The notes beneath the pieces are model-generated. The model ran no database searches. It saw nothing but the letters and a program-made list of their open reading frames with translations, and was not told the DNA's origin. DNA of 64,000 nucleotides, from assembly GCA_008632985.1 (NCBI GenBank), contig QPGO01000012.1, positions 620,001-684,000 on the forward strand, in the 5' to 3' direction. Source of the stretch: Psammoneis japonica (Eukaryota). The translations under genes and the position numbers were made by a program. This document shows, in pieces, positions 2,596-50,837 of this stretch. The first letter of the stretch is position 1, and each line of letters opens with the position of its first letter.

Positions 2596-3049
2596 ACCTT
2601 ACTACTACTTCCTTGCTTATACTTGTGGTGATCAGAGGAGAGAGAAATGGATTGTTCTTACGTACGACCTGTGTATCTTTCTCTTGATGATTCTTGACAC
2701 TTGTTCCTTGTTCAACGGGGCCAAGCCAACTCGCGAAAGAGCGTGTGGGCTTCACGACAGCCACAAGCTCGCGCGCGATCGCCGGCGCGCAGCCACCCCT
2801 GAGCGAGAGGGTTCTCGTGTCAGTTGCTTCGGGTGTGTAGTGCTTGGTTGATTGCATGCAATGGTTCGAATTGTCTGTGCAGGCAGACGCAGTGCTTGCA
2901 CGATCGTAATATAGACATACGGACTTTTTAGGTATATTTCAGTCTCTTTGGGATTTCCGAGAACCCCCCTGCTGGTGCGTACAACTCTACGCACTGTCAA
3001 GCCATTTCCCGCTCCGAACCCAAATCTCACCACACAAACACCGGGGTTC

Positions 3050-6000: not shown

Positions 6001-8260
6001 GAATTGCTGGGCTTCCATGTTCAAAAACCACATCATTGCTCGAGTTTGCTTCACACAAAACTCATGGGGCAAAAAGAATGAAGTCAAGATTGAAGCAGCA
6101 CATGGTCAAGGCAAAGGGATTGTGAGTGGAGAGATCACTCCCGACCAATTGTTTGTGCTCTTGACAAGCACAGCACCAATCTCTGCTGCAAGCAACTTTC
6201 AACTCAAACCCACAAGATTGTGCACTCATCCAATGTGGACAGGGCAGAAAAGGTTGAACTTTTGGAGTCAACGGCAGTTCCTGTTCTCAACAGCAGAGAG
6301 CTCAAGGTGATCACCCACTTGGCCATGGGCATGCAGAAGAGTTCTGCGGCAGTCAACAGGGTGTGGAATTCACGTTTGATGAGTGCACGGCACATTGCAT
6401 CTGTTGCAAGCCCATCCTGTCACAACCATCAATGACCATGGTTTCTTGTCTTTCTTGCCTCCCAGGGAAGGATTCTGGAGGTTCAATCCAATGCACTTTG
6501 CCCGTCCTCTTGTGCCACACTTTTGCAACTTGCATGACATGAGCTGATGCAGCGAGTGCTGCTCTCAATGCACAGGGTGCCTTGTAAAGAATGTGAAAAT
6601 GCATTGTGCTCACAGCTTTGGTTTCACCTGGCCTGAGTTCTTCTTGCCATCTGATGCTTTGGAATGTGCTGCTGAGGCTTGTTGGTCCAAGAAGCTGTGC
6701 AAAGATGACTGCTGTTGTGAATTCATGGATTTCTTCCAGCCGTCCTCCGTCCTGAGTGCGAAGCACTGCAAGAAGAATTGAGGAGTGCAAATCTGATTTC
6801 ATTGAGCCATCAATCCTTGGTTTCATGTGTTGCTCATTGTTTTAACCTCACAACAGATTTTTCTGGAAAAAACATCACTCACATGCTTTTCTGGCTGTTT
6901 GGTGTTGTTGGCAACTGTGCCAATTGAATGGGAGAGTTGCTGGGCAAGGATTCAATGGACAGCCTGGCGCCACTTGAGAATGCATTGCCTGAGTCACGTG
7001 GAACATTGAGTCGTGAAGATCTGTCACTTGCGGAAATGCACTGGCTGGTCAGCAAGTCAGAGAAAGCCGCGAGTCTGTTGCAATCAGATGAAAGCAGTGC
7101 CACATGGGCTCTTGATTGTTTGCTCCACCTTCCCAATTGACTTGGACACATGTTGAGAGAGGTCACATTCAAGCATGGATGGAGATTGGCAGGTGGTCAT
7201 GACTTGATTGTCTCTGGGCCAAAGAGCTCCCCAGCACAACATTGGCATCAAAGTAAAAAGACATTGCTCATGGCCACATTCTTTGACAGCAACTTGAACC
7301 TGTGGAGCCACTTGCTGTCCAGTGGCAACAGCTGCCAGCATCGTGGGCTCAACACAATCTGCTGACTGGAGCAGGGCTCAACCCAAATGTGCTCTCTCAA
7401 GTCAGGTGTGGGCATCTGGGAAGAGATGTTGTGAAATTCCATTTGTGTCTCATTTGCCCAGATGACATGATGAAAACCAGAAAGGATTTCAATGCAACAA
7501 GATTTGTCAGGAAAAACAAAATGCAGCAGAGACCTGGAGACTGCGGGAGGGAGACAAGACGACAAGAACAGTGACGCACTTGCAACAACAGCAACAGCTG
7601 GACATGGAGCACCATGCACTGAACTTTTGGCTTGCTGCTCAAAAGTGCAACAAGCAATGGAGCAAGTTTGTGCATCAGGTTGTGAGCAGTGCCTGAGTTT
7701 TGGCTTCCCCCCGGTGTGTTCCCCGCCACTCAGCTGAGACAATTGCTTTGACAGCACTTGCAAAACAACAGCTGGCAAGCCAGCAGAGAGCCCAGCTGTG
7801 GAGAACAGCTCACTCAACAAGCTCCATTGCTTTTCAGTTGTTTGCAAAAGCACGTGCTTGGTTGGCAAGCTCATGACACAAGCTTGCCCCTGCTCGGCAG
7901 AGCCAGCAGCTTTTGGTGCAAGATGCTGTGGGCCGCACAGCCGCGAAAGGCAACCTGCCTGCTGGGTTCTTCTTGGTGCCTCCCGTGTTCACTGCAGCGT
8001 TGTTGTCTTTTTGGCTGCTGCTGCTGCCCAGCCTGGCACTGCTCAAAAAGATTGTGCAATGGCTGCCCCTTTTGGTCTGTGCAACGATGTGCTCTGATCT
8101 GACAGAGAGCTTGCAATCACAGAAAAGCAACACACCACCCACCACCACCCACCACCGTCCATTGGCAGCAATCGGTTTGTGTCATCAATCCCAAATCTAG
8201 CACAAACGCACACTGACCCCTTCACAACTGAAACTGCTTTGACACCTTCCATTCATCGGC
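3050..8260. repeat. Degenerate TpA- and CpG-depleted repeat/heterochromatin-like block
   Basis: Visibly very few TA and few CG dinucleotides, excess TG/CA and many overlapping Cys/His-rich ORFs. Composition returns to normal on both flanks. Boundaries are approximate. Confidence 0.7.
5400..7600 (+). pseudogene. Pseudogene of a PEP-utilising enzyme (PEP synthase/pyruvate,water dikinase-like PPDK_N domain plus middle domain)
   Basis: Frameshifted fragments LVGGKALQCWRLLKQGIPMPESF, SSRSAEDLAGQSFAGQCDAHL...IKNCWASMF and IEAAHGQGKGIVSGEITPD match the PPDK_N motifs VGGK, AEDL..SFAGQYDTYL, CWAS and GLGEGVVSG..PD. Tyr is replaced by Cys/His. Confidence 0.7.
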
Positions 8261-8799: not shown

Positions 8800-9378
8800 A
8801 TGAAGTTTCTCTTTTCCTTTCTTACTTTCCTTTTGGATGCTGCCGTAGGAGTGGGAGATAGCACCTGTGATCCCAACCCATGCATGAATGGAGGGACGTG
8901 CTCGCATACACTTGGCGGGTTTTCTTGCGTTTGCTCCGAAGGGTTCACAGGCAGGAGGTGCAGAGTAGTGATGTCAGGTATGCGAAGCCGCCGACTGGAT
9001 ACGTGCGATCCCGATCCATGCCAAAACGAAGGGGTATGCGAGCATACCCTTGGTGGGTACAGATGCAATTGTACCGAGGGATGGGAGGGAACGAATTGCA
9101 CGGACGAGTCAACCCAACAGCCGCATGACACGTGCATGCCCGATCCATGCCACAACGAAGGGGTATGCGAGCATACCCTTGGTGGGTATAGATGCAATTG
9201 TACCGAGGGATGGGAGGGAACGAATTGCACGGACGAGTCAACCGATCAGCCGCATGACACTTGCATACCCGATCCATGCCACAACGAAGGGGTATGCGAG
9301 CATACCCTTGGTGGGTATCATTGCAATTGTACCGAAGGATGGGAGGGAACAAATTGCACGGAGAGCAGGAGCAACTAA
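8800..9378 (+). CDS. Secreted protein with four EGF-like domains
   Basis: Signal-like N-terminus MKFLFSFLTFLL followed by four CxPxPCxNxGxCxHTLGGY/FxCxCxEGxxGxxC repeats. Confidence 0.85.
   Translation: MKFLFSFLTFLLDAAVGVGDSTCDPNPCMNGGTCSHTLGGFSCVCSEGFTGRRCRVVMSGMRSRRLDTCDPDPCQNEGVCEHTLGGYRCNCTEGWEGTNCTDESTQQPHDTCMPDPCHNEGVCEHTLGGYRCNCTEGWEGTNCTDESTDQPHDTCIPDPCHNEGVCEHTLGGYHCNCTEGWEGTNCTESRSN
8998..9362 (+). repeat. Three near-identical 129-bp (43-codon) tandem repeats encoding EGF domains 2-4
   Basis: ccgatccatg recurs at 9011, 9140 and 9269 with near-identical intervening sequence. Confidence 0.9.
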
Positions 9379-10344
9379 ATGGCGGACGTGGGAGGCACCA
9401 TTCTTCATATTACATACTTTTCATTGTAGAGTGCCGTCAGAGAAGGAGACAAGAATACAAAGAGTACCTGGTACGCGAACTCCGGATTAAAACGTATACT
9501 GAATCCATAGTGTTATTCGCCATATTCGACATTATCAGAGCATGCCGAAACTTGTGGATGGTGGCCGCACCCTACTTTCATTTTCATACGATGCATGAAC
9601 AAATATTATTTTAGTACTTCCATTTTAATTTGATACATACTCAAACACTAAAAACAATGCTATTTAGTCCAGTACAAATTGCTCCCTCTCTTAAAACAGA
9701 GGTATCTTTCCATTCATTCATCTGCACTCTTCCCAAAGCGTTGAATGCAGTAGAAGGCTAGCATGATTTCATATTAGACGGCAGACGACGAGATGTAAAC
9801 TAGAATACAAAAGCAACAAGTTTGTCAAAACATGAAAACTATCTAACTTCAAACTGTTGATGCGGGCACGACAAAAAGAAGACAAACTAGTTCAGCGACC
9901 AAAGTTTGGAGAGCGCATTTTTGAAGCACCTTGAGAGGAAGGATTGGCAAGGCATGGACTCCAAAATATTGCACACCGACTTAACGTACCACGGAGTAAG
10001 GCGCCGTCCACGGCAAATCCCAATCCAGCATTGAAGCGTCCTCCTTCCGCTTCACACTTCACAGGTTCAGATCTCAAATCTCGAGATCTTCGCTTGAGCG
10101 ATGCATTCGATAAACGTTATGTTCAATTTTTTGGAAAAATTGGAAATTTTGGATTTGGAAATCCAAAATCCCAAATTGGCGCTGCCATATGACGATAGAC
10201 GACGACTGCTGTTGTTGATACATTGTGTTGCTCCCTTTTGTGCTTGTGTCAGTTATGATCGATTTGACTCATGGATCTACATGTAAAAGGTATTGGATAG
10301 TCAGAAAGAACAAGTGGCCTTTAGTTTGGATAACGGCAATCATC

Positions 10345-12481
10345 ATGTTTCTGTGTGGTGGGAAACGTGTTGCCGCCTGGTCGGGCACATGTCGACGACA
10401 ATTATTGTTTGCACGTCAAAATGGGCTTTCAAGAACTCGCGTATGCCCCATAGTTAGACTGCATGCCAAAGTTTGCAAGGAGGATATCGCACTCAATCCG
10501 AAACTGTGGGAGGGAGCGACTCATTCTTCTTCTGATTTTGTTACACACGTTTTGGCAGGACCCGACGAACCAACCGTCGTAAAAGCCATTGAATCCGCCG
10601 TGAATGTCAGCACGAATGTGGACTGCAATGCCATAATACCAAAAGAAAATACAAATCTATCCGCCTCGCATTTGTTGCAACTGGGGGCGGTTTGGTTCCT
10701 CCCAAAGGATGCACCGCGGAACCCCAGTTTGGGCGCAAAACCCATGCGCTGACGTTGGAAAACTCTATAACAACACTACAAGAGGGCGATTATCTTCGAA
10801 TCCATCATGCTCCACGTCGATTTCCGCAAGTGCATGACTACGAATGGAACCAACCAATAGCGGAAACTACAAAAGAAAACAAAACCGGTGTGATCGTGGC
10901 AGAGGACGTGGACAGGGGCTATCTCGTGATTAACAAGCCGGCCGGGGTGCCGGTCCATGCAACGGTGGATAACTGCTTGGAAAATGTAGCAGAGTGCATT
11001 CGCACACACACAAACCATGATTATGTTTCGACTCCACAACGGTTGGATCAAAACACGTCGGGATTGCTAGTAGTGGCTACCAAAAAGTCGTTTGCCGCCT
11101 ATTATGCCAAACTGCTGAGAACGAAAACGGATCAACAACTCAACACATCATCTACACCAACAAGAAGTGCCATTCACAAACGATATAAATGTCTTGTCTG
11201 TCTTATACCACGGAAAGACAACCAAAACAGCGACAGCGGTACGTATCGTTCACGTCTGGTCTCGACGTGGATGTTTTCCTATTTGTTCTTCTCACATCTC
11301 TGCCTCTTTTCACCAGAACCTTGGTCTGTCACATTGGCCATGAATCGACTCAAGTCGTTTGTAGGTACCGTTATGCGTCATTATCTGGAACCATCAATTC
11401 GTGCACCAAAACACTTTGCACGGGTGCCTGGAAACGAATCTTGGGCAGAGAGTCTGTTGCGAATCGTCAACGTTGGCACACCCTATCCATTGGTGGGAAG
11501 CCAGGCTGGAAATGAGCTTGCAAATGGCTTGTGGCATAGACATGGTATGACAAAGATAGCAATGAGTGTGACTCTTTTGTACGTTAGAGTAGAGGATTGC
11601 TATTGACGCTTATTCGGTTTTTTTCTGTTATCGTGGGATTATGTACAGAAGCCATGCCGGTAGACTGTGTCGGAGTTGTTGAATTGGAAGTGGAATTATT
11701 GACGGGACGAACACATCAGATTCGGGGACAGCTGTCAACAGAGGGCTTTCCGTTGGTTGGCGATGCCCAATACGGTGGTGCGATCGAGTCGTCATCCGAG
11801 GGACTTGGTATTTCTCCACAGACCCACTATGTTCATTCCAATCAACTTGCGTTACAGTGCAGCCAGCTCGAGTTTCTAGATCCAGACATGGTTATGAATG
11901 AAAAGGATGGTGCCGAGGTGGGCATGATCTCGAGTCGGTGGAATTCCTACAGCCTAAATGAGGCGTGGTGGTCTCCTCTCCTTGAGCGATATCGCGACGA
12001 GGCTGCAAACGGCCCTGCAACGAGCAGTTCGGCCGACCAAGAACAAGCACGAGCCCTGCAAGATTCTACCCAGCAAACAGAGCGACAGGGCATGAGATTG
12101 GACAGTGAGATTGGCATGCCACCTAGAGTGCAGTTGTCCCCTGGCACGAACAAATATGTCCTAGTCAAAGCCAAAAAGAGAGTGCATGACGAGAGTACAA
12201 CACATTGGTTTGTGAAGAGCGCTTCTCCATCGGAATGTGGTGGAGCCTACCATTCCAATGTTGCACAGGACCTGGTGGATGAGTTGTGGGAGTCATTTGA
12301 TAGTGTAGCTGTGATGGGTGGAGGACGGATTGATTATAATGACAAGGAAAAAGTGGCACATGTGTACGGCTTTAGCTATGGATTCGGAAAGGGCGATCAC
12401 GCTTTGGCAGCTCGTGTCATTGAAGAGGCGACCGACAATACGATTACTGTCACTTTTGATGATGCCGATGGGCTTTACTAA
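10345..12481 (+). CDS. RluA-family pseudouridine synthase fused to a C-terminal Janus/Ocnus (PHPT1-like phosphohistidine phosphatase) domain; introns ~11239-11316 and ~11545-11648; apparent frameshift near 10748
   Basis: RluA motifs VINKPAGVPVH, QRLDQNTSGLLVVA and LLTGRTHQIRGQL..GFPLVGDAQYG. Janus motifs KYVLV, YH, GGGRI and VYGFSYGFGKGDH. The predicted GT..AG introns restore the frame. Start codon is uncertain. Confidence 0.75.
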
Positions 12482-12759
12482 GACGCTGCGGGTGGAAAGT
12501 GCCGCAACTCGATTTTGTTCGCGTTCTCGAGCTTGGATTCGACAAGAAAGTTTCGATTGAATGCGTACAGCACAATGTCAACCGCGTCCAAACAATGCAA
12601 TACAAATATATTGAATCGTACCACCAGTTTTTGGCACCGTTATTTATCAACTCTATTGTACGTAAACCTTACTGTCAAAGTCATCTTTGCTGTACCGGGA
12701 GTGCGGGAGATTGTCGCTTCGGGGAGTTCGTACTCGAAATGGTTGCAGCACCTCTTACA

Positions 12760-14620
12760 ATGTGATGACCATGACACTGTCACAAATGACAAATTGCACC
12801 AACTTCTTCTGTCAGGGAGTGCAGGAGGAATGGAGTGAGAGCCACGCAAGGCTGGAGCAGGTGCTGGAGGAATTTCTAGAGAAGATGTGCAGGAGGAGCT
12901 GAGGGCAGGGTTTGGCACGTGCGATCCATGTGCCCCTTCAATGGTTTGGGAGAGGATCACCATCTTATTTGAGTGTTCTGCTGAATGGCATGTGAAGGTG
13001 TTGGGGACCTGGCAAAATGCTGGCAAGGAGAGCAGCTCACCGGAAAGCAGCATGACGAGACAAAATTGGGCAGGTGCCAAGACAATCCATTTGCCTCCTC
13101 GCCAATGTTTTCCAGGACATTTGACAGGACAAGTTTTGCCCACATTGTGGCTTGTGATGACCCCATTGGTTTGCTCATGTGTGGGAAAAAGCAGGTGTTG
13201 CACTTTTGGCCAGAAGCAAAGATGGGCCAAACATGTTTGCTTGAAAAGAGCTTCAAGAGTTTTTGTGAGGAAATGTCAGGACAGCTTCAAGTCCATGTGA
13301 TCCAACACAAAGAGAGCTTCAACAATTTCAAGTGAGAGAAGGCTGCTGTCATCACTCTTGTTTGGCATCCAGAAGATGTGCAGAAGCCAGGACCCCTCCA
13401 CAAGCTGCTGGCCATGGCAACCCTGTGTGGGCAACAAGCAACTTGTGAGCATTGGGCCCTCACAGGATGGCACCAGTGCTCTTGCAATTTCACTGCCCTG
13501 CACAAGAGAGTGCTTTCAGTGACCTTTGTGGCACATGCCTCACATGACACACACTGGTCTCTTTGCATGCACTTCAGCCTTGTCATTGAGCTCAGCCAAA
13601 GCATCACCTTTAAGCAGCGCCAGTGCATGAGCAAAAACTTCTCCAGACCCACTGCAATGTTTTTCCTTGCCAGAATGCAGATTGCTCAATTTGCACTTTG
13701 TTGGGCTGTTGGCATTGGCCAGTGAGTTCTGGGGCTCACACAACCACATGTGCTCTCCATTTGAGACGGCACACAATCTTCTCCAGAACTCAACCCACTT
13801 CTTCATGGTTGGCGTGGGTTTTTGGCAATTTGACTGACATCCCAACCTTTTTGTGCACTTGTGAGAGCACAACATTGCTGTGCCTTGTGCACCATCAGGA
13901 GATGAAAAATGGCAGGTTGTTGAAAGTCATGTTGTGGAAAGTTTGTGCAAGCTGTCCTGCAAAAGAAGTCTGGAACAACTTTCCTCCATGGAACCAGTGC
14001 CAGAAAAGCCAATGAAGACTGGAACAGCAGAATTTTTTTCTTTTTCTGGACATTCCCGGTGCTGACTGTGTGTCAGAATCTGTGCAGGTTTTGGCAAAAT
14101 CCAGATTTTCCAGACTTTGTGGAGACTCCCCTGGTGTGCTGGTTCTGCACCAGTTTCTGTGCATTTCAATGTTCCACACTTCTTGCGTTGGGCAGCAAGG
14201 CTGGTTCATTCTCTAGAAAAGTGGAGTCATGTGAACTCAGAATCACATGACCCTCTGTCAGTTTGCATTTTGGATTGTTGAAATTGGCAGCAAAAATTCT
14301 CTGACCCTGTTTGATGCTGAGTGTCTGCGCTCTGCGCCTGTTGTGTGTTGTCGCACTTGTTCTTGCACTCGTCCTGATGGACCATCAGAGCACACATGCA
14401 CAGATGCACAGGGACCCCATGTGCTTCCACAGCACAACATGCTGATGCTGCTGTGGTGTGCACACACCCAGGATCTGTGTGGTGTCACCAGCATGTTGCC
14501 AGCTTGGCAGAAAATGGGAAACAAACGAGATTTTCATGCACTTGGATCAATCCCAGGTGGGATGATTCTTCCACACAAAGAGAACTGCAACACAGGAAGA
14601 TTGTCACCATGACTGATGTC
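12760..14620. repeat. Degenerate TpA/CpG-depleted repeat remnant of unassigned family
   Basis: Same TG/CA-rich, TA-poor composition as the other blocks. No recognisable intact domain. Confidence 0.5.
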
Positions 14621-14800
14621 GAGTGACCATGGATGCGAAAGTTAGAGTTTCACACGTCTACAGTGCGTCTCTCACGTCAATCTGCTGTCACCAGCACAGG
14701 TTGCCCCTCGCACGTCATGTCGCTCGGATGATGACTGCAGCTGTCGTGCTCTCTGTCGCGTGGGTGTCTGCTTGTAGACCTGCTCGGGTTGCGATGTCTT

Positions 14801-14975
14801 TGAAGAATTTGCCATGTGGTCTTGTCGGAAACAGTGTTTGGAGCTGTGCATTTAGCGATTTAGAGCATGAAGACTCCACCCGAGATCCACTCACAATCTT
14901 AGAAACAGCAGCACAATGTCACAACGTTTTCTTTAACTTTGCTCTCTAGCAAGCGACTGCAGGGTAATTTGTTCA
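14801..14975 (+). repeat. 5' LTR of Copia element 1 (hypermutated copy)
   Basis: Aligns without gaps to 19626-19800 with 16 substitutions. Confidence 0.95.
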
Positions 14976-17900
14976 CTTTGTCAGAGCCATCGCCGCATGT
15001 GACGACAGTGGCAATGAATGCTGCGCTTGCGAACGACTCGCAATGCGGTTGTTCATTCCAACGAGTCAGAGATGACATGAAAACATCGATGAACGCAAGA
15101 CGACATTCAGTGCTTGACGAGCATGCAACTCCCAGGGCTAGTTCGGCCATGACACTTGTAGATGACAAAAGTGTCAACTACCCTGATGTGTCTCAAGAGC
15201 GTAAGTGCGCGGACACAGAGCGCAAATGTGGATCTGGGACGCCATTTCCATTCCGAAGTTATCTCGGAGGCAACTGCGTGGCGATTTGAAATCGCTGAGT
15301 GAGCACACAAACATGTCCAAGTTGAACATGTAGATGCGACACAATTGACAAATTACATTTAACCTCACTGTCGGTCAACGTAGACCAGGGAATGAGCACG
15401 TTGCCGATGATCGGCACGTGCGTCATTCGATCACGTAGATTGCAACAGCAGCCGTTACATCTGAAATCCAACACAGATTCAATCCACTTGGATTAAATGC
15501 AAACCGCCATCTGTAGACACGTTGATTGTCATCACAATGATGCTTTATCCAACAGTGGAAAAGCGACACGACGTTCGCGCACCTCACTCACTTTTCATGC
15601 AGAACCACACAAAAGTTTGTGAGAACATGTCAAACACACCGATCGTAACCATCAACAATGGCAGCCGCTGCAGCGATGCGTGCTGCCTGTGGCCGACCAG
15701 GCTTTACCGCGGAAGCAGCCACGGCTTTAACGGATGAGCAGGGAATCGACTCAGTGACGAACTGCATCATCTTGATGACCACGAGGTCGAGACCTTGTGC
15801 AGGTCATTCGTCACCCAGGAGGGGCTGCGGCAGGTGCTCCGCGGCAGGTGGGAACGTCCAACCCAACCAGGGACGTCTGTCCCATTACAAGCCAAGACGA
15901 ACCTCAAGCTCGCTGCGCACACGGCTCGTCACTGCGAGCGTGTGTCACGAACGCCAGCGCCGTCGACATCAGTCTAGCACAAGTGCGCGGCTTGCGTCAT
16001 CTCTGTGCCGCGGAGGACACCCATGAACCACCCGAAACGCTACCGACGATCATCGAGAAGGACTGGCCGAAGACGATCGAGTCGATCCAGGAGCACACAC
16101 AGGCTTGTCGAGGCGAAACGAAGATGCCGCTCATGTGCGTCATCCGCGAAGAGCAGGAAGCAACCGCCGAGGGAGACGATCGGCTGTGAACTACAATGAC
16201 CCGATCAAAGAGATGATTGCGAGGGCACCCCATCTCACTGCTGGACACAACCCGCAACCCACCGAAACGCACACGGCTGACAACATCAAAGTGTGGGAGA
16301 TCATTGCGGCTGCTGCGAGAGAACACTCGAGTTGGGCCTGTGTCAAGTTGGCCCAGAGGCGTCAGGATGCAGGACGGCCTGCCGAACCTCTGCAACCATT
16401 TCTTGGGCCCCAACAACACAGATGACATGGCAAACGCCGCTGAGAAGCGCCTTGCCAGTCTGTCCTGCCATGGGGAAAAGCGCAATTGGAATTTTGAGTG
16501 CTGCGTGCGAGTTCATGTCGAACAACACGCGATTCTGGACAGGCTGACCAAATGTGGTTATGCCGGGATCAACGCACGATCCAAAGTCCGCCATCTCCTT
16601 GCAAGTGTCAAGGCTGTTGCTTGACTCAGTTAAGATGCAGATTGTGGCCAGCGCAACGTTGCGCAACGATTTCGATGCTTGCGTTGTCCTGTTCAAGGAT
16701 TTCATCAAGCAGTCCAAGCTGGACAACGACGCGAAACGTCTTCGCGTTGCAGCTCTCAAAGCTGGCAAACGCAAACGCGAAACCGTCATTCATGCTGATG
16801 ATGTGGAGGATGAGCACTGCCCTCCCAAAGAGCATGCTGAGCTCTCTCCTCAGGCCAGGGAGAAGCTCAAGTCGCTGCGCGACACGCGTGGTGATGCGAA
16901 ATCCGGCAAGGCCACGACGGCTGGCAATGCCAAGCAGATCAAGTCGTTGACCAAGACAGTCGCGGCGTCTCCGCTCAGATGGACGATTCATCTGACGAAG
17001 GGAGCAGTGAATCTGAGGCCAAAGAGCCAATGAAGCCTCCGGCTGCCAAACAAGAATGGAGCCGCAACAACAAGGCATTGATTCGCGCGGCTGCTTGCAA
17101 ACATGTCCCCAAGGCAGGCCATCGCAAGAAGTGACAGCCAATGGTGGTGACCATGCAGCTCAGTCCATTGCAGGTCTTACGCCTAAACCAGACAAGGGTC
17201 AAGAGACCATCGCGTGAAGAGTCTGCACGGACATTGACAGTCATGCAGACATGAGTGTGCTGGGAAAGCACGCTTGAACCCTGCTTGACCACGACAGGCC
17301 AGCAGACACAGAAGGGTGTGACCCAATGCCAGGCACCAGCAAGAGACTGCACACAGTCAGTGGAGCTGTTGCTTGCACAGATCCTCAGACGGGCCACCCA
17401 CACATCTTGGTTGTCCACCAAGCAGTGCACACACCACACCTTGAGCACAACTTGCTGTGTCCAATGCAGCTGTGGCTGAATGACGTGGAACTTTCTTTAA
17501 AACCGAAGTTTCTGCTGACAAAGCCCAATGACACGGAACATGCAATTGCAGCCAAGGATGCAAATGGCACTTTGTTAACCACACCACAGACCTGGAGGGA
17601 GTCACGAGCTGCTTCCCCTCCGGCATCCCGACTTCATCCCAATGTGAGGATGCGGCCCAAGACGGAGCGTGCATGAACTCACGCATGAGTCCCCGGAATG
17701 GGACCCCGCCTCATCAGACTTTGATGCCAGAGAAGAAGCAATGACTGGTGCTCTTGGCAGAGTGCATGAGACCGGGGACGATGCGCGTCCTCACATGCAC
17801 GTTATGAGCATGAAGCTCTCACGCACTGCAGCTCAAGAGACCTCAGACCATCTGGGGAATCAGCAGCTGCGTGATGTTTCCAATGCATGCGATGACCGTG

Positions 17901-19625
17901 TGCTGCTGGCATCCATGAAACTGTCTTCACTCAAGACGATGAAGCGCGGCTTCAAAGTTGACGCTGAATGCTTGGCCGAGAATTGGTCTGTCAGCCTCAA
18001 GGATGCTCAGAATGCCCTTGAGGTAACAACGCAGCATGGAGCTAGGACAGTTCTACATCCTACGCTGTCACGCCGATTCTGTGCCAATGATCGACAACTG
18101 CGACACAGGCGCATCTCAAAGGAGATGTGCTCCGATGCCATGTTCTCCTCTGTCAAATCTAGACAAGGGAATGTGTGTGCGCAAGTGCTTGGAATGTCCA
18201 ATGGATGGGCACGCGCTTGCCCATTGAAGTCGAAACGTCTAGCGCACAAGGCATTGTTGTTGCTCTTCACGCAAGAAGGCGCACCTCACACCATGACAGT
18301 GGACGGGGCGAAGGAAGAGACAATGGGACGGTTTGGCAAGAAGGCCAGGGAGGCTGATTGCCACATCAGGCAAACTGAACCACACACCCCTTGGTCCAAT
18401 GCCGCAGAGGCACAATCCGTGAACTCAAGCGAGGTGTTGGGCGCAAGATGGTTAAATCACAGGCCCCAAAATGCTTGTGGGATGATTGCCTGGAACCAGA
18501 GGGCCTTGTTGGGTCAAACACCACTCGAAACATTTGTGAACTCGACGGTGAGGTCCTGGAAACTGCAGTGTCTGGTCAGACGGCCAACATCTCGCACATG
18601 TGCGAATTAGGCTGGGATGACTGGATCATGTTTCGAGACACAGCAGTCTCATTTCCTGAGGACAAGGAAGTCCTGGGGCGACATCCAGGTCCGAGCAGGG
18701 ATGTGGGCCCAGCCTGACGGCGCCAAGATGCTCAAAGAGAACGGACAGGCAGTCCATCGCTCATCATGTTGGGCATCAACGCCCAAGGAACAGCACCACA
18801 AGACGCACCTTGCGTTGCGTGAAAAGTTTGACAGGTTGACAAAGGCCAAGCTGGGTCTGGGTGTGACCGTCGGGGACTTTGACGACCCTGATGCAATCAC
18901 TCCTACCTTCGAACTGTTCAAGATGACGAGGACAAAGTGACAAGACACTCTTGCACTGGTTGTTTCATCCATTTGAACATGGTGTTAGTCTCCTGGTTCT
19001 CCAAGTGTCAGAGTGCCACAGAGACTTCAGTCTTTGGAGCCGAGTTTGTGGCTGTGAAGCAGGGCATGGAAGCTTTGCGAGGCCCAAGGCACAACTCAGG
19101 ATGATGGGAGTCCCGCTCAGTGGACCATCATACATTCATGGGGACAACATGTCAGTTGTCCACAACACCCAAAGCCCAGAGTCAACTTTGAAGAAGAAGT
19201 CTAACTCCACATGCTGCCATGCCGTCAGGGAGTCAGCAGCTGTGGGTGAGTCCCTCACAGGACATGTTAGATCGGAATGTGATCCAGCTGATCTTGCGAC
19301 TAAGATCATGTACGGTGGTGTCAAACGAGATGGCCTCGCAGGTGTGACACTGCACGACACATTTGATGACAATGGATGAACTGATTGACAGTCGCTTCTT
19401 CGACTGCTCCTTTTCCTGTTTCTCCTTCACATTTAGCGAGCATGTTGGCTCGCATTCCTTCCAAGCGCTTCTTGGATCAAAGCATAGTTGTGTGCCGGCA
19501 CCCTTTCCCAATTTGGGTTTAAGCAGGTTATTAGGGTTTCCTTGTCACTTGATCGTGGCTAAATGCTGTCGGAGTGTAAATTGGATCAAGCCGATTCAGT
19601 GTCTACTTCAACGACTTGAGGGGAC

Positions 19626-19800
19626 TGAAGAATTTACCATGTGGTCTTATCGGAAATAGTATTTGGAACTGTACATTTAGCGATTTAGAGCACGAAGACT
19701 CCATCCGAGATCTACTCACAATCTTAGAAATAGTAGCACCATGTTACAACGTTTTCTTTAACTTTACTCTCTAGCAAGCGACTACAGGGTAATTTATTCA
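19626..19800 (+). repeat. 3' LTR of Copia element 1 (TpA-retaining copy)
   Basis: Aligns to 14801-14975 and is preceded by a purine tract. Confidence 0.95.
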
Positions 19801-19887
19801 TCTTCGTGTTGGGTGTTGACTGTTGACCGCTGTTCAATTATTTGTTTTTCGTCAAGCCAAAGCACAAAGAGCATTTGACAAACGCAT

Positions 19888-21047
19888 GATGAGACGACAA
19901 CTTTTGCAGAGAACAACGGATGTGAAAATCCGTCACCTGAAGATGGTGATGCTTACAACTGTTGTCGTCTCACTGGCCATTTTGCTTGTTTCGACATTCA
20001 GTGATCAGGCATTTCAGAACAAGTCTCACCGCATTTCTCGTTCTCTGTCAGCACCACGAGTCTATTTGTGTGGCTGGGCCGACCCTAGTCCCGCAAATCC
20101 TCTCTTGCACCTCTTTCCAGGCCACAAATTTGTTCGGCTTACAGCAGAAACGGGTCCTCCTGATTTGTCAGTTGCTTTAGACGATGATATCATTGTGTCA
20201 AGCGAATCCCGAGAGGATCCTGCCTGTGCAGGAGTCTGGGATGGCTCAAATTCATTTTTTGAGTGGGTTGCGAAGTTTCCCGGCAAGGTTCTCCTTCGTA
20301 ATGGAGAGAGTCGAGAGAAACGGGAGAAGAATGTAACGGACAATGTCTACTCCATTGGATATTATCTGGATTCAATTGAGGAACGAACTATTCACTTTAC
20401 ATGGATGCAGATGAAACTTTTAGAGTACGGACGAGAGTGGTGGCGAAAGCTGCTAATTCATGATATGAAACCAACTAGCAAGCAAGAGAGGTTCCTTATC
20501 TATGCTGCAAGTAACTGCGTACCTTTTTGACAGGGAGCTTTCAGGCAACTTTGTGAGATAAGTGTCGCTGATTGTGTTGGAAAATGCTGCGATGGAGTGA
20601 ACAGCTCCTTGTGGCAAACACCTCCGAATGACAGACTAGTTTTCAAGACCCATTCCGATGACCACCGACGCAACCGACGAGGCTTCTCTTCATACAAGTT
20701 TTGCCTCGTTATGGAGAACACATACGTGGATGGTTATCTTACCGAAAAGATTATCAACGCCTTCCTCTCTGGCTGTGTACCGATCTGGTATGGATCAGAT
20801 GAGGTTTTTGACATTTTCAACCAAGACGCTTTCATATTTTATAACATTCAAGATCCCCGAAGAGCTTTGGCACGAGTTCAAGAACTTCAGTCTAACAGTA
20901 CGGCCTATGATGCAATGATGAAGCAACCATATTAGCAAATGGTGAAGAAACAATCAGAAAGTACTTTTCATTCACCCTGAGTTCGGTCAGGGCGAGTTGG
21001 TGAAGAAACTACATCGAAGGCTTTGGCCCATCGAAAACAAAAAGTAA
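19888..21047 (+). pseudogene. Glycosyltransferase family 10 (alpha-1,3/4-fucosyltransferase-like), disrupted
   Basis: N-terminal TM segment and motifs YAASNCVPF and YKFCLVMENTYVDGYLTEKIINAFLSGCVPIWYGS. In-frame TGA at 20528-20530 (probably from CGA) and 1-nt deletions near 20926 and 20976 relative to the adjacent duplicate. Confidence 0.8.
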
Positions 21048-21335
21048 AGTAAGCTGTGTACCGATCTGGTATGAATCAGATGAGGTTTTTGACATTTTCA
21101 ACCAAGACGCTTTCATATTTTATAACATTCAAGATCCCCGAAGAGCTTTGGCACGAGTTCAAGAACTTCAGTCTAACAGTACGGCCTATGATGCAATGAT
21201 GAAGCAAACCATATTAGCAAATGGTGAAGAAACAATCAGAAAGTACTTTTCATTCACCCCTGAGTTCGGTCAGGGCGAGTTGGTGAAGAAACTACATCGA
21301 AGGCTTTGGCCCATCGAAAACAAAAAGTAAAGTAA
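20772..21335 (+). repeat. Tandem duplication (~281/283 bp) of the 3' end of the GT10 gene
   Basis: 20772-21052 and 21053-21335 are nearly identical (gctgtgtaccgatctgg...aaagtaaagtaa). Confidence 0.95.
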
Positions 21336-25017: not shown

Positions 25018-25753
25018 TGTCAACTTTTGCCGGCGTTTTCTGCTTTTCGAACCAACAACAGCTGCCTGCTGCTCTGCCTGCTCCCCAAACAAATGATGCA
25101 CGTGATGCTTCCCTCCAGCACAAGAATGAAAACAGTTGTGTTTCTCTGTCAACACTGAAAAGTTGCCTCTCTCTGTTTGGACAAGGAAAAAGAGCAAGCA
25201 CGGCTCTCCTTTGTCCCTCGCGCACTCCTTTTTCCGTGTGTGTGCTCCTTTTCTCATGACAGGCTGGGCAACAACTGCAGCACTTTGCAACCCAAAAAAG
25301 GCTGTCTCTGGCCACAAAGATTCTGGTTTGTTTTGAGACTTTGATTGCAGCATCCAACATTTTGTTGGTGACTTGGGTTTTTGTCTTCCACACACTCCTG
25401 ATTGCTGTGCCCCACCAGGTCAACAAAGGGGGGCCAGTTTGCTTGCACACCATGTGAGAAACACACGGGGCGATGCTGGCAAAACCCAACGGTGTGCAAT
25501 CCAGCTTTGTTGTGAATTTCAATGTGTGCAAGTGCAGATTTTACAAGCTGCTGCATTGTTGCAGGGAGAGACAGATGGGAAAGGAGGGGCCAGCAACTGC
25601 TCTGTTTTTTTTTTTTTTTAATGAGAAGGCTCAACGGGGTGCTCAAAAAGGGCACAATGGCGCTGCCAGAGCTGAGAGCATGACACACCCATATGAAAAA
25701 AAGCTGTGGGTCATGGCAAAGCTGTGAGAATTCTGTTGTGCACCATTTCAGCT

Positions 25754-26524
25754 CCAGGTGGGACCTCGCACTGATGAGCTGTGACATCGACAGTTTTTTG
25801 AATCAAGCAAATGCCACGCACGTGCATTGCCACATGATTTCAGTGAATTTTGCACCACTCAATGGTGCAATTGTTGGGCAATCCATTTGACAACTCTTTT
25901 AGCATTTTTCTTCTGTGCCATTCTCAAATGTCTCAGGCGAGTCAGAACTGAAGCTGTGTTCCGCCTCAAGCTTCAGCATGCAAAGGGGGGGTCAAAATTG
26001 CCCATTTGTCACAGCATGCAGAATCTACGCAGGTTCTGGCATTGACCTTGCTGCAAGCACAGTCAGCAAATGACCCAACAATCCCAGCATGCAGGGCCTG
26101 CGCAGGTCATGGTGTTGAACTTCTTGTCAGTGCATGACCTGCGTGATCACGACTGCAACTTTTGGCAGCGATTCGATTCTTCCCGGGACTGACTGGTGAC
26201 GCACTGACTGTCACAGCAGAATTTGCACCATGTGCTGCAAAAGCTGTGATCAGCAAGTGGGCTGTGATCCAAAAAAGAATCTGGAACCTTGAAGGGGGTG
26301 GGGTTTGGAGGCGGAACACACAATTAATTTGGACTTGCCTTAAGAACAGTGCAGGTGAGGCGGGTCATCCAAAACTTGAGTGCAAACAGGGATGGATGTG
26401 CCTCAAACTTGGTTGTTTGTTCAAATGTCAAAGACTGGCATGTGCACTGACCAGAGCACAAACTGCAGAGCTCACATGCAGAATTTTGCTGCACAGGCAA
26501 ATGCTGCACAGAGTCTCACCCAGG
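25754..26524. mobile_element. MITE (CCAGGTGGGAC-type termini), same family as 62308-62668, interrupted by a second MITE
   Basis: Both halves align to 62308-62668 (ccaggtgggacctcgcactg...; aaaactt(c)gagtgcaaacagggat...). Confidence 0.8.
25936..26339. mobile_element. Nested MITE, PIF/Harbinger (Tourist)-like
   Basis: Imperfect ~35-bp TIRs ggcgagtc..tgtgttccgcctc / gaggcggaacaca..gacttgcc. 3-bp TSD is TTA on the right and TCA on the left. The empty site tgtc-tta-agaa is seen in the copy at ~62490. Confidence 0.75.
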
Positions 26525-29500
26525 GCTGGAATGTGCCAGAGAATTTGCAAGGAACGCCGTTGATTTCTGTGCTGAGTTGTGCCCAGCAAGCAGCGCCACA
26601 CTGTGCAATGCTGGTTGGGGTGCAACACACATCTGGGCTCATGCAGGCTTCAGCTGGTGCTTGGGCAAGGCATGGTCATCTTGTGTCAAGAGATTTGGCA
26701 ACGCTGCTCTTTTGCTGTCATTTTTTGCACTCACTGCTTTTAACACAATGCTCATCAGCCCAGCACACAGCAACTTTGTCTTGTTTTTTTTTTAGACCAA
26801 TGTTTGCTCTGTCAACAACACTCTGGCCATTGGGCTGTTTGTCCTTGTGCTTGGGCAGACCACACCAGTCTGAGTCCATTTGAACATGTTGCTCTTGCTT
26901 GCACTCTCTCTTTGATGCTGTGATCTCTGTCCCATGACAACATGGCTTGGATTCCTGTTTTGTTTTGTTTTGTTTTGTTGACACTCTTTGGAGTGAATCA
27001 TTTGGTTCACACAATTGTCATTTGGTGTCAAGAGGCACCTGTTTTGTTGTGTCAGCTGCACATTTTGCATTGATGCCAAGGCAACCCATGGCCACTGCAG
27101 ACTGCACCAAAGCAAGTGCACATGGCACAGGAGACCTTGCAGTGATTCCCTTTTGGTGACATTGGTTTGCAGGTTCAACGTTCACTCCAAAGAATCATTG
27201 TCACTGTGCTCATTGCTTGCAGACTGCAGACCACTGCCTGTGCAAAGTTTTGCTGCAGCCAACTCCCACACATCTGTCCTCTGTGTTGCTGCTGCTGCTC
27301 CTTGCACAGACTGCAGCACATTCAGGACAGCTTGCACTTGATGCACTCACTGTCTCAAATTTGCCAAGGACATGAAAAGGCAAAGGAATTTGCATGACCT
27401 GCTGCTGGAGATGCTTGTGGAGAATCTCTTAAAATGCTGTTGCTGACTGCAACTTGCTGTGTGTGCCATGCATGTTGCAGATGAGGGCAGTCTCTTGACT
27501 TGGCTTGGCCAGTGCATCACATTGTTGAGCTCACATTGTTGATTGATTTGTTTGCATTCATTTGGCATTGGATGCAACAACTCTGTTGTCACTTTGTGAG
27601 CCTGCTGGCAGCATTGTGCAAAAATCACTGCCTCAAAGGAAATTGAGTGGGGTGTCCACAAAGTTGCCAAAAAGATTTTTGCAAACTCCACCCAGCCAAG
27701 GACAAGAAGTTGATCAACTGGCAGTCATCCTGCTCTCTTTGCACTGGAGCTTGTGCCATGCTCCACCAAATGAGCTTCAGCACAGAGTCCAGTGGCTCTT
27801 GTAGTGGAATTCTGCTGCCTCTCTGTGGTGTGCCTTGGAAACTCTGCTCTCTTGGCAAGCCACCAGCACAGAGCTCTCAACCACTCTGCTGCCACCATGT
27901 CACACCTCCTCAACCTTTGAAAAATTTCAAAATTCCCAATTTTGTCATTGCACTTGGTTTGCACAACAACCAGAGCTGGGAATTGTCACACTTGATTTGG
28001 ACATGTGGCGCTGGCTTTCAGGTCTTCCATTTTTTAGATGCTGCCACCCACCTTCATTTTGTCCCACTCACAGCATGTGTGCCCACTTGGAATGTGCACA
28101 TCTCCTCATTGCCTTGTTTCTAGGTGCTGATGACATGGCCAATGCAAGCACTGCACTTTGCACAGTGCATCAGCAGCCAACCAAACAATTTGTTCACACA
28201 GCACAGCAAACAAAATGGATGGAGTCAGATCTGCAGATTTGCTCCATGTTTTCCAGCTGCTGTCTCAACAGCACGCGGCGCTGCATGGGCACATTTGCGT
28301 GTGTGTGTTTTGTGCATTGGGGGGCACATTCATGCTTTGCAGCAGCTCCTGAAAGTCTGCCTGACATTGTTGCCCACAGACTTGTGATGGGTTTTCATTG
28401 GAAGTTTGCCCATTTGTGCCAGTGCAGCATCTCATGAACCATGGGATTTTCTGCATGATTTTGTGTGTTGGATTCATGCATTGGAAACAAAACAAAATGT
28501 CTCATCAGTCAGGTGCACATGAAGGCAGAAAAGAAAACAAACAAACTGGGAACTTCTGCAGAAGTTTGTGCAACTGGACAGACATTTTGCAGTGGTCAGA
28601 CTTTTGGGAGGTGCCAGAGCATGCACTGGTTGTTGAGACAATTCTGGGCAGCTCCACTCTGTGACATGACATTTGCACTGCAGCCAAGCCAAGGTGGTGG
28701 CGGGGAATCTTTGACTCTTTGTGCCAAAACAGCAGGCCAAGCACAAGGAGAGGATTTTTTGTGGGGACAACAACCAGATGTCACCCAGTCACCCTGTTGT
28801 TCTTGGCAGATGATTGCTGGCGGCAATGCAGCTAGCTGTGGTGTGATCTGATGTGGGTCCATGATGATGAAAAATTCCCACCCAACCTGGCCTTCTGTTC
28901 ACACAGCGCTGGTGGGGGAGAACAAAATGGATGGAAAAGCATCTGCAGATTTGTTCCCCATTTTCTGGCCACTGTCTTGGCAGCACCACAACATGAACAT
29001 GTGTGTGCTTGCACACATGTTTCACAAAACAGACACATTTGTGTGTGCCTGGCTGCTGCTGTTGGGGCCATTTTGGCAGCTCCACACATTGTGGCCAAGT
29101 GGATGCAGCAGAATCAATCATTCAAAAGATGCACAACCTGTGCCCAGAATGACTTTTTTGCAGCTTCATTGGCATGTTCTCTGCGCGCATGTTTCCCTTG
29201 CAGCATTTGCACCAGCCTCAACAAAGTCCTGCCCTCCAGCAAACAAAAACATCAACCACAAGAAGTGAGCATCACAAGAAAAATCTGGAACTGTGTCTTT
29301 TTTCCTTTGTTCCTGAAGACAGCTCTTGCAATCCCAAAGCACAGCTCTCCCATGTTTTTGCTTGCTTGTGCTGCCAATGCTGCCCGCGTTGCTTCTCACA
29401 ACTTTTTTGCTGCTGCCCCTTTGGCTTTGCAACATGCCCGCCATTGCTGCTTGCTCCATGCCAAAGCTCTGCAAAGCACTCTGCAAGTGACAAACCTTGA

Positions 29501-29673
29501 AGAAGTTTCTCACGACACTGTTTGTGCTGTTTGCCACCAAGATGAAAAAACATGATGGCCTGCATCAGAGGGGCAAAAAAGGTGGCACAAATCACAGGTC
29601 ATCGTTTCACGCACTGAACCAGCGCACGCACATCTTCATTTGTTGGGTCGATGTCTCAATCATTTAATTTCCT

Positions 29674-35600: not shown

Positions 35601-35989
35601 AGTTTGTTTGGTCGGTGCCATGGTTGCGCGGGAAAAAAATCAAATTCCCATGTAGAATGCTGGCATGTGATCTATGGTGGTCGTGATGATCACAAATCGA
35701 GTGAGAAAAATGGCTGTGACAAAGATGATGATTTCAACGGAGAAACGTCGCCAAATCACACAGCGAAAGTTGCAACGCAGTTGCATTGAGGAAGAGAAAC
35801 AGTGCACTGCTGCTCATGGCCTTGCGGACTGGCGATGTCGGGACGATCTAACAGATGTCTAGGACAGATGATAATCGTGCACTAGAGATGAGAGAAAGTG
35901 AGCAGAGAGAGATCATCGGATCTCTCAATGCTGTCTGTGCTGCTCTGTCTGAGAGAAGGGAGTGTGCTCCCCATCTCGGATGTCTGTCA
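29674..35989 (-). mobile_element. Full-length degenerate Ty1/Copia LTR retrotransposon (QVDD-type RT)
   Basis: 167-bp LTRs at 29674-29840 and 35823-35989, near TSD ttcct/ttccc, PPT aggggaggg. Domain order gag, LWHQHLGH (GAG-pre-integrase), integrase (DQGGEL, GPVER), RT (ALQGHPEAG, QVDD), RNase H (HIDNSSA..RSRHVDV..ADVLTK). Confidence 0.92.
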
Positions 35990-39000: not shown

Positions 39001-39300
39001 GATGAACAGGACTGCTGTTGGTTCACGCACAGAGACACAGGGTGTCTCTGCTTGTTGGGCAATGACAAGGTGGGAGACACTTGGTCGTTGAAAGCTTTGT
39101 CAAACAGCCGGGACAAGGCTGGAAATTGCTGCATTGACAAATGCGGCATGAGAGACCTTGAGGCAAGGGTTGGCATTTTTGCTCGTGCCATTGACTGCAA
39201 TTGCAACTGATTCATCAGGGAATGCTGTGGTCTGATGTGTCTCCGGAAGGAATGGAACATCATTTGTGAAGGCTCAAGTGTTCTGGTTTGCAAGTTGATG
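36100..39300 (+). pseudogene. Degenerate ORF remnants of unknown function inside the DNA-transposon block
   Basis: Long, biased coding-like stretches (e.g. 37326-38057, 38703-39210) with acidic tracts, broken by stops and frameshifts. No family recognised. Confidence 0.3.
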
Positions 39301-39303
39301 AAT

Positions 39304-45998: not shown

Positions 45999-46299
45999 GC
46001 ATGGCAAATTCTGTGATGCCTGGATGCATCTGTCAAAGAAGAACAAGCTTCATGCCGCTGAAAACCTCCCACCAATCATGCCCAAGGAATCCGCACTTCT
46101 GCTGGGAGGAAGGGTGTCATGCATTGAAACCCACCTCCTGAGTGATTGCGCGAATGCCTGATGCATTTGGGCATGGTGTCTGCATGTTGATGCAACATGT
46201 AAGAGGCAAGGAACCATCATCTGCTTGTTGACACAACACAATGAATCTGCATGTCTAACCTGCAGCCACTTTCATGTTTTATGTTGGCAAAATGGTCAA

Positions 46300-50750: not shown

Positions 50751-50837
50751 GAACCAGCCGGAAAACAACTTGCACACAATCAGCACTGGAAGGGACGAGC
50801 ACATGGGACAAAACCACACAAAAAACAGTGCAAAGAC

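Follow-up and report, generated by a model that had tools for sequence, protein, structure and literature searches.

TpA loss to TpG and CpA in transposon-rich domains of a Psammoneis japonica contig

The long terminal repeats (LTRs) of one retrotransposon are identical at insertion, as a consequence of reverse transcription. In a stretch of Psammoneis japonica DNA (assembly GCA_008632985.1, contig QPGO01000012.1, positions 620,001 to 684,000), the two LTRs of a Ty1/Copia retrotransposon, here named Copia element 1, differ mostly where one copy has TpA and the other TpG or CpA, which raises the question of what could alter one LTR and spare the other. The whole stretch of 64 kb is called the window, and positions are window coordinates throughout. 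An initial annotation, made from the letters alone, had seen in this pair a repeat-targeted hypermutation of TpA. The analysis of the window indicates that a regionally targeted mutation process very probably acts on silenced, transposon-rich domains, changing TpA to TpG or CpA on either strand until TpA is nearly gone.

Asymmetric repeat pairs and the timing of the changes

Repeat detection followed by MAFFT alignment revealed that the LTRs of element 1 form a 175-nt direct repeat, ungapped and 91% identical, which starts with TG and ends with CA and is flanked at both ends by TCTT (coordinates in Table 1). Position-by-position listing gave 16 differences. In 12 of them the 3' copy has TpA, and the 5' copy has TpG (seven sites: 14811, 14824, 14836, 14848, 14941, 14959, 14971) or CpA (five sites: 14832, 14888, 14906, 14909, 14920), with none reversed; the other four are one CpG (3') versus TpG (5'), two other transitions and one transversion. 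TpA counts are 6 in the 5' LTR versus 18 in the 3' LTR, and CpG counts 5 versus 6, so that the manual alignment of the initial annotation (16 differences, loss of 12 of 18 TpA against one of six CpG) was exact in every figure. Only 36 of the 175 positions belong to a TpA, yet they hold 12 of the 16 differences (binomial P = 4.5e-6), which excludes chance as the source of this clustering.

Comparison of further LTR pairs, which the initial annotation had suggested, extended the pattern within the window. In Copia element 2, 10 of the 14 difference events show TpA in the right copy and TpG or CpA in the left, with none reversed; in a third pair, of 175-nt direct repeats, the same holds for six of eight differences, again with none reversed. 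All three pairs straddle the edge of a sharply bounded domain from which TpA is depleted, and together they give 12 + 10 + 6 = 28 sites with TpA in the outside copy and TpG or CpA in the inside copy, against none in the opposite sense; by our own arithmetic, the two-sided sign probability of such a ratio is about 7e-9 if both copies mutated alike. As the two LTRs of an element have the same age, a 28:0 ratio excludes an untargeted genome-wide bias. Within the LTRs of elements 1 and 2, the inside copy is converted at 22 of 31 TpA and non-TpA divergence is about 2-3%, from which we infer a TpA change rate roughly a hundred times that of background substitution.

The changes affect both strands, as the initial annotation had held. 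Indeed, TpG and CpA products are interleaved within one LTR and their overall counts are balanced (4292 TG versus 4356 CA); no consistent TG-versus-CA strand bias was found in 1-kb steps along the window, the values ranging from -0.22 to +0.17.

These observations bear on the editing of RNA or cDNA, either by an ADAR-like A-to-I activity on transposon double-stranded RNA or by a cDNA deaminase, with fixation of the products by retrotransposition. In animals, RNA editing is known to cause A-to-G hypermutation of retroelements, and the affected sequence of the window is mostly retrotransposon. However, hyper-editing of the ADAR type is pre-integration and strand-specific and leaves identical LTRs; this candidate was rejected, as the LTRs of elements 1 and 2 differ 12:0 and 10:0, TG and CA are mixed, both strands being equally affected in one LTR, and a host-gene pseudogene, which is not a retroelement, is affected as much as DNA without identification. 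Moreover, the edges of the affected DNA lie inside elements, and the preference for a 3' pyrimidine described below is opposite to the 3' G preference of ADARs. Because the LTRs were alike at insertion, such editing is excluded as the source of their differences and the change must be chromosomal and post-insertion; this origin, proposed in the initial annotation, is upheld by the 28:0 asymmetry of the three repeat pairs, and a contribution of RNA or cDNA editing to the signature is most improbable.

Direction of change and the depleted domains

The initial annotation had taken TpA as the ancestral state without an outgroup. In the opposite reading, TpG and CpA would be ancestral and the 3' LTR would have been mutated by classic repeat-induced point mutation (RIP), or by another C to T change producing TpA-rich copies. 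A comparison of two sequences carries no polarity, CpA to TpA change on both strands is the signature of RIP, and the 3' LTR considered by itself satisfies the RIP indices (TA/AT 18/14; (CA+TG)/(AC+GT) 18/22). Polarity was therefore sought in protein homologues. In one test, the 559-aa reverse transcriptase (RT) open reading frame (ORF) of element 2 (39644-41320, minus strand) was aligned with 32 Copia homologues (P0018-P0049; Tyr content 3.0-4.8%), a column being conserved when at least 70% of the 32 share the same residue. Of the 209 conserved columns, the window agrees with the homologues in 178; where Tyr is conserved, in 14 columns, it now has one Tyr, six His (CAT/CAC), six Cys (TGT/TGC) and one Trp, whereas 177 of the other 195 are unchanged. 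Changes of Ile to Met (ATG) and of Leu to Ser (TCA) are also present.

In a second test, the tblastn queries were those 53 of the 150 Copia homologues that exceed 1100 aa, and 12 of 36 homologues of PPDK, whose pseudogene lies in the window. Over three Copia elements and this pseudogene, only 2 of 41 conserved Tyr codons survive. The 15 of element 2 are now two Tyr, four His, seven Cys and two Trp, with 301 of 348 non-Tyr conserved residues kept; the 18 of the PPDK-like pseudogene have become 10 Cys (TGY), five His (CAY) and three other residues, leaving no Tyr (non-Tyr kept 314/467); none is left of the five in element 1 (non-Tyr kept 102/133) or of the three in element 3 (27/69). Tyr occurs only 0-5 times per 320-751 aa in the ORFs of the depleted blocks, in which Cys and His are raised; of the 150 homologues, 148 have at least 2.4% Tyr.

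Since conserved Tyr residues are now Cys or His, TpA is ancestral and TpG/CpA derived, and the RIP reading is refuted; the direction assumed in the initial annotation, and its opposition to that of RIP, are thus borne out by an outgroup, with 39 of 41 codons lost. RIP proceeds from C:G to T:A and creates TpA, whereas here the polarity is the reverse and TpA has an observed/expected ratio (o/e) of 0.10 in the affected DNA. In addition, the composition of the TpA-rich copies is the normal one, as found in the gene blocks and in 80 related Copia loci, and both RIP indices hold together in only one of 128 windows of 500 nt, so that the probability of classic RIP can be regarded as negligible.

The extent of the loss was mapped from dinucleotide o/e in 500-nt windows and TpA counts per 100 nt, and in 1-kb windows as well. 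Such windows, foreseen in the initial annotation for the whole genome and run here within the 64 kb, separate two kinds of DNA with sharp edges. About 42 kb lies in TpA-depleted blocks, where 500-nt windows mostly have a TpA o/e of 0.00-0.3, a CA+TG o/e of 1.4-2.1 and a CpG o/e of 0.0-1.1; in the gene-bearing blocks the TpA o/e is about 0.5-0.9. Overall, the depleted blocks (42,429 nt) hold 248 TA (o/e 0.10), with o/e of 1.70 for CA, 1.56 for TG and 0.52 for CG, versus 921 TA (o/e 0.61) and o/e of 1.24, 1.18 and 0.95, respectively, in the gene blocks (21,571 nt). The loss per dinucleotide, 0.037 for TA plus 0.019 for CG, balances a CA+TG gain of 0.053. Of the 1-kb windows of this stretch, 100 of 253 have a TpA o/e below 0.1 and 145 below 0.2; conversely, among the 80 related metagenome loci (the best-scoring 80 of 539 confirmed relatives, and so biased to intact copies) the TpA o/e is 0.53-1.05 and none of 1329 such windows falls below 0.3. 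Measured against both the gene blocks and these loci, the TpA-poor state, with its o/e of 0.10, is the abnormal one, and it is no characteristic of the Copia family.

The edges of the domains do not follow the ends of the elements: they lie within element 1, where TpA becomes dense again from about 19500, still 125 nt short of the 3' LTR, and within element 2, at 45222. The element 1 family is multi-copy, yet one LTR of each of the two elements is spared though equally repeated, and the DNA at 12900-14708, inside a depleted domain, is near single-copy today by contig depth. Edges that ignore element ends, together with spared LTRs, favour a chromatin-type domain over recognition of homology, without proving it. 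The initial annotation had spoken of repeat targeting; this holds insofar as multi-copy retrotransposons are affected, whereas the affected unit is a sharply edged domain that cuts through elements, spares one LTR and includes a pseudogene and a now single-copy stretch. Indeed, the conversion of the PPDK-like copy of a host gene indicates that the process is not limited to transposons.

CpG is also lost from the depleted blocks (o/e 0.52 versus 0.95 in gene blocks), which is consistent with decay by deamination of 5-methylcytosine (5mC) and represents a second component. The two losses are separable: at 16001-17000 the TpA o/e is 0.08-0.10 with a CpG o/e of 0.92-1.09, and at 13001-14500 and 26501-29500 both values are near zero. 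Thus, CpG loss cannot account for TpA loss, which is the faster process.

An ordinary mutation spectrum might strip TpA everywhere, the genes keeping it by selection; TpA is low even in the gene blocks (o/e 0.61), and the blocks that look oldest (CpG o/e 0.1-0.2) have the least TpA of all, as untargeted decay of this kind would predict. However, of LTRs of the same age one has lost 12 of 18 and 10 of 13 TpA and the other none, with 28:0 over the three pairs; the non-coding DNA of the gene blocks is dense in TpA right up to the sharp edges; in element 2, 301 of the 348 conserved residues other than Tyr are retained, against 2 of 15 Tyr; and parts of element 1 combine a TpA o/e of 0.08-0.10 with a CpG o/e of 0.9-1.1. 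Untargeted decay is accordingly very unlikely.

The depleted state could also be an artefact, if a modified base at heterochromatic TpA were misread and the real DNA still had TpA. Read support came from three public runs of one sample, kept as contigs (Logan), of which run X1 was used; for these runs the records give no library type, and the sample is possibly that of the assembly itself, which leaves some room for this explanation. Against it, an X1 contig of 5425 nt, as deep (59) as the unique DNA beside it, covers 9289-14708 and departs from the window at 11 letters and in 9 gaps, whereas about 90 differences would be expected if its ~1.7 kb of depleted DNA held normal TpA; since this contig carries the depleted block, a basecalling artefact is unlikely. 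The longest X1 contig, of 315 kb, implies accurate reads, and misreading would give all TG from one strand and all CA from the other, not a fixed mosaic within single 31-mers. Finally, the 150 best library homologues include two, P0106 and P0113, without Tyr and with 4.5-4.7% Cys and 4.5-5.1% His, which carry Cys or His at the same conserved Tyr positions. Both come from Logan assemblies and not from this window, so that the signature exists elsewhere in public data; taken together, these points leave an artefact with very little probability. P0106 and P0113, like P0204, are Copia RT fragments with no Tyr and raised Cys and His, 45-47% identical to element 2; all three have Cys or His where Tyr is conserved, and they may stem from this organism or from a different one.

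Sequence context and other features of the window

The TpA left in the depleted blocks is mostly Y-TA-R (Y, pyrimidine; R, purine) and R-TA-Y is nearly extinct: sites read as TAY on two, one or no strands number 10, 123 and 109 in the depleted blocks versus 306, 463 and 158 in the gene blocks (chi-square P 7e-28). Tetranucleotide counts, depleted versus gene blocks, are 21/34 for CTAA, 24/40 for CTAG, 34/44 for TTAA and 30/40 for TTAG, and conversely 1/70 for ATAC, 1/72 for ATAT, 1/73 for GTAT and 7/91 for GTAC. In the repeat pairs, 28 of the 40 TpA of the three spared copies are converted in the inside copies, and of their adenines 15 of 28 preceding a pyrimidine were changed, against 13 of 52 preceding a purine (Fisher P 0.014). 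The preferred site is A within T-A-Y, in the order TAT > TAC >> TAR, or equally T in R-T-A; since TpA is palindromic, sequence cannot tell whether A or T is attacked.

The features of the window are collected in Table 1.

Table 1. Domains, elements and repeats of the window (500-nt windows for o/e values).
Feature	Position	Strand	Description
Depleted domain A	3000-8200		TpA o/e 0.00-0.13, CpG o/e 0.17-0.64; edges ~2988/3053 and ~8198
PPDK/PEP-synthase-like pseudogene	5475-7233	+	In domain A; PPDK_N E 3.4e-21; three frames
Depleted domain B	12900-19500		12900-14800 without identified content, plus most of element 1
5' LTR of element 1	14801-14975	+	Within domain B; 6 TpA left
Interior of element 1	14976-19625	+	Internally deleted Copia derivative; family multi-copy in the genome
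3' LTR of element 1	19626-19800	+	Outside domain B; 18 TpA kept
Depleted domain C	25000-45220		~20 kb, elements 3 and 2; most 500-nt windows with TpA o/e 0.00-0.31
Copia element 3	29671-35989	-	170-nt LTRs 29671-29840 and 35820-35989, 91% identical, both inside domain C
Copia element 2	39296-45999	-	193-nt LTRs 39296-39488 (inside, 3 TpA) and 45807-45999 (spared, 13 TpA)
Spared island	45222-45999		Normal TpA; terminal ~780 nt of element 2 including 5' LTR, between domains C and D
Depleted domain D	46000-53540		Content without identification; 343-nt tandem repeat at 50081-50750
175-nt direct repeat pair	60773-60947 (outside), 61278-61452 (inside)		Straddles the edge of domain E
Depleted domain E	60950-64000		Runs past the window end

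Elements 1-3 are Ty1/Copia elements, a class with terminal direct repeats around a polyprotein in the order gag-protease-integrase-RT-RNaseH; their LTR pairs measure 175, 193 and 170 nt, respectively. In tblastn, element 2 (39644-43726) is collinear with Copia polyproteins of 1359 aa over residues 2-1358, with a best library match of E 7e-196. Pfam matches to RVT_2, gag_pre-integrs and SH3_retrovirus are weak yet present in the Copia elements, that to RVT_2 reaching just E 3e-9 on an element whose match to Copia proteins has E 1e-196. Element 3 has all three domains on the minus strand, and its LTRs differ by five CA-versus-TG doublets, which are independent changes of one ancestral dinucleotide, either TA or CG. 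In element 1, Copia identity comes from tblastn alone, with polyprotein residues ~25-613 at 17233-18883 and ~1270-1356 at 18934-19316; no Pfam match was found on 41 ORFs of at least 110 aa in or beside it. The summed contig depth of element 1 in run X1 is 330-880 versus ~60 for its unique flanks, and no further copy is found within the window. Other genomic copies have CpG at 15090, 15105, 17096, 17261 and 19121, where the window has TpG or CpA, and TpA at 15096 and 17262, where it has CpA or TpG (among the 40 of 795 differing places listed); these mixed states indicate that both decay processes vary from copy to copy.

The PPDK-like pseudogene covers residues 1-641 of a 951-aa homologue, with two frameshifts and the last ~310 residues missing. 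At the start of domain C, positions 25401-26000 are a very high-copy repeat (summed X1 depth ~20,900 versus ~60 for unique DNA), and many X1 contigs end at 25749/25805. Stop codons in six frames number 1974 TGA, 193 TAA and 157 TAG in the depleted blocks versus 798, 400 and 370 in the gene blocks; the scarcity of TAA and TAG results in many long overlapping ORFs. Such frames are found on both strands (up to 751 aa, as at 30152-35639 and 47436-49379), many without a homologue; a homologue search with the 648-aa ORF of domain D at 47436-49379 (minus strand), which has no Tyr, gave no match.

In the gene blocks, ORFs encode an RNA-dependent RNA polymerase (RdRP) with a chromodomain, an EGF-repeat protein, a pseudouridine synthase, an Ocnus-family protein, a GT10 fucosyltransferase-like protein, a delta carbonic anhydrase, an Mpv17/PMP22 protein and a CLC channel. 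The carbonic anhydrase has its nearest atlas clusters mostly in Bacillariophyta, in keeping with a diatom or a close relative, and the best homologue of the CLC channel is 62% identical. The RdRP frame (202-2598, minus strand, 799 aa; PF05183, E 5e-27; chromodomain PF00385, E 3e-10) adjoins domain A; as a polymerase of RNA interference joined to a chromatin reader, it is a candidate for connecting silenced domains with small RNAs. The GT10-like frame (19820-21335, plus strand), just outside the spared 3' LTR of element 1, carries a single in-frame stop (20528-20530), and a tandem duplication of 281-283 nt follows (20772-21052 and 21053-21335), whose 99-100% identity indicates a very recent origin. 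Two coding tandem arrays are present: 8998-9384, made of 129-nt EGF-domain units (2.8 copies, 94% matches), and 55616-56716, made of 399-nt units (2.8 copies, 75% matches). The latter lies inside a 703-aa ORF (54803-56911) of odd composition, with 1 His, 5 Lys, 24 Cys and 37 Asn.

Possible agents and comparison with known systems

Retrotransposons, the host-gene pseudogene and DNA without identification are affected alike, by a process that converts A:T to G:C after insertion, in chromosomal DNA and within sharply edged domains. Each conversion removes its own target, as TG and CA are no longer TpA; the end product is stable and no CpG arises, in agreement with the observed composition. The elements are inactivated by the replacement of Tyr with Cys or His throughout. 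Its specificity, speed and restriction to domains suggest that the agent may be an enzyme recruited to silenced DNA, that is to heterochromatin or repeats. The first choice, although a tentative one with rather less than an even chance, would be a DNA adenine deaminase of the TadA/ADAT type, turning A into hypoxanthine that is read as G; by analogy with 5mC at CpG, such a deaminase might act on N6-methylated TpA. The initial annotation had proposed adenine deamination or mutagenic processing of a modified A or T, a chemistry that would agree with the T-A-Y context.

With the same targeting, the chemistry could instead concern the T of TpA, oxidised by a TET/JBP enzyme to 5-hydroxymethyluracil (5hmU) or 5-formyluracil, or carrying another adduct, which would mispair with G and give T to C changes in R-T-A. 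The context fits, as a T-A-Y read on one strand appears on the other as R-T-A. A T followed by A is the preferred site both of 5hmU in dinoflagellates and of base J in the telomeres of kinetoplastids, and 5-formyluracil can pair wrongly with G. On the other hand, 5hmU is weakly mutagenic and no such modification, 5hmU included, is known to us in diatoms; moreover, the 187 window ORFs scanned gave no dioxygenase domain, and nothing in the sequence favours this chemistry over adenine deamination. Modification of T is therefore a possible but unlikely route. A precedent for marks other than 5mC on algal repeats is found in dinoflagellates, where 5hmU from a TET/JBP enzyme is reported to silence transposons (PMC11572971). 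A methylated or oxidised TpA mark might possibly be kept on the palindrome, as 5mC is on CpG.

To our knowledge, mutational genome defence is known only as fungal RIP, with its cytosine chemistry. The window makes it fairly probable that diatoms, or at least this one, possess a dedicated mutator for genome defence, chemically a mirror image of RIP, in which an enzyme recruited to silenced domains alters the adenine or thymine of TpA on either strand to a G-like or C-like base, respectively, and erases all Tyr codons and TAA/TAG stops of transposons in a short time; this would be the first natural programmed A:T to G:C editor of chromosomes and the first RIP-like system outside fungi. If so, it would be a type of genome defence not seen before, algal genomes would be shaped by a mutation bias of new origin, and the enzyme itself, as an editor of DNA adenine or thymine found in nature, would be directly of interest. 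The combination of TpA o/e and CA+TG o/e could then serve as a simple index to map silenced domains in diatom genomes. For annotation, hypermutated DNA without TAA and TAG produces long false ORFs in six frames, by which gene callers can be misled; on hypermutated transposons the signal of profile searches is much reduced; and dating by LTR divergence would overestimate ages several-fold.

The initial annotation knew of no described system with this signature. Likewise, no description of TpA to TpG/CpA repeat hypermutation was found in searches of the full-text literature, whose coverage ends short of subscription-only papers and supplements; the passages returned by term look-ups in the diatom retrotransposon paper PMC2806351 hold nothing relevant to it, and those in PMC5124317, PMC7884421 and PMC11572971 nothing on this signature.

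Several points weigh against targeted hypermutation as set out here, or against parts of it. The analysis covers a single 64-kb window, which limits generality at the scale of the genome, and the 80 control loci, being best-scoring and intact, say little on how widespread the process is; the provenance and library type of the supporting runs, given above, count here too. CA-versus-TG doublets between copies could stem from CpG as well as from TpA. The context drawn from residual sites assumes that the ancestral tetranucleotides of the depleted blocks resembled those of the gene blocks, and in the repeat pair at the edge of domain E five of the six conversions are at an A before a purine, so that the preference is quantitative and not absolute. 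As regards the agent, TAT was changed more than TAC, whereas editors of the TadA type favour a following C, and the scan of 187 window ORFs revealed neither a deaminase nor a dioxygenase domain.

Among known systems, ascomycete RIP is similar in being chromosomal, post-insertion, confined to segments, active on both strands and directed at one dinucleotide to near saturation; in both cases missense changes kill transposons and a compositional scar can be read from dinucleotide indices. However, RIP makes TpA from CpA and TpG (C:G to T:A), whereas here TpA is destroyed (A:T to G:C); RIP lowers GC and creates stop codons, whereas here GC rises and stop codons are removed; and RIP belongs to fungi, whereas the lineage here is a diatom-like stramenopile. 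RIP, for its part, acts on duplicated sequence, to an extent that follows the homology, and depends on a cytosine methyltransferase of the RID/DIM-2 type and on the premeiotic stage. Since the attacked base is A or T, and not C, the cytosine-methyltransferase chemistry of RID/DIM-2 cannot apply. The decay of CpG through 5mC, present in the same blocks, likewise turns a palindromic YpR into TpG or CpA on either strand of silenced DNA; unlike it, the loss of TpA proceeds faster and, as at 16001-17000, can be almost total in DNA that has kept its CpG.

ADAR and APOBEC enzymes share with the process of the window a hypermutation by deaminase-type transitions that inactivates retroelements, ADAR giving A to G. 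They act on RNA or single-stranded cDNA, before integration and with a strand bias, and leave the LTRs alike, whereas here the changes are post-integration, strand-symmetric, bounded by domains and extended to non-retroelement DNA. Natural TadA/ADAT enzymes, differently from what is proposed here, edit tRNA, and activity of TadA on DNA is known to us only from engineered editors. As reported in PMC8989541, these TadA-derived editors work best on an A after T, better before C and worse before A; they thus resemble the present case in the A to G outcome, in the preceding T and in the better following pyrimidine (C) and worse following A, and differ from it in that here TAT exceeds TAC. Finally, the 5hmU of dinoflagellates is, as described in PMC11572971, a base modification other than 5mC on the transposons of a marine alga; unlike the process of the window, this epigenetic mark is not reported to leave a mutational scar.

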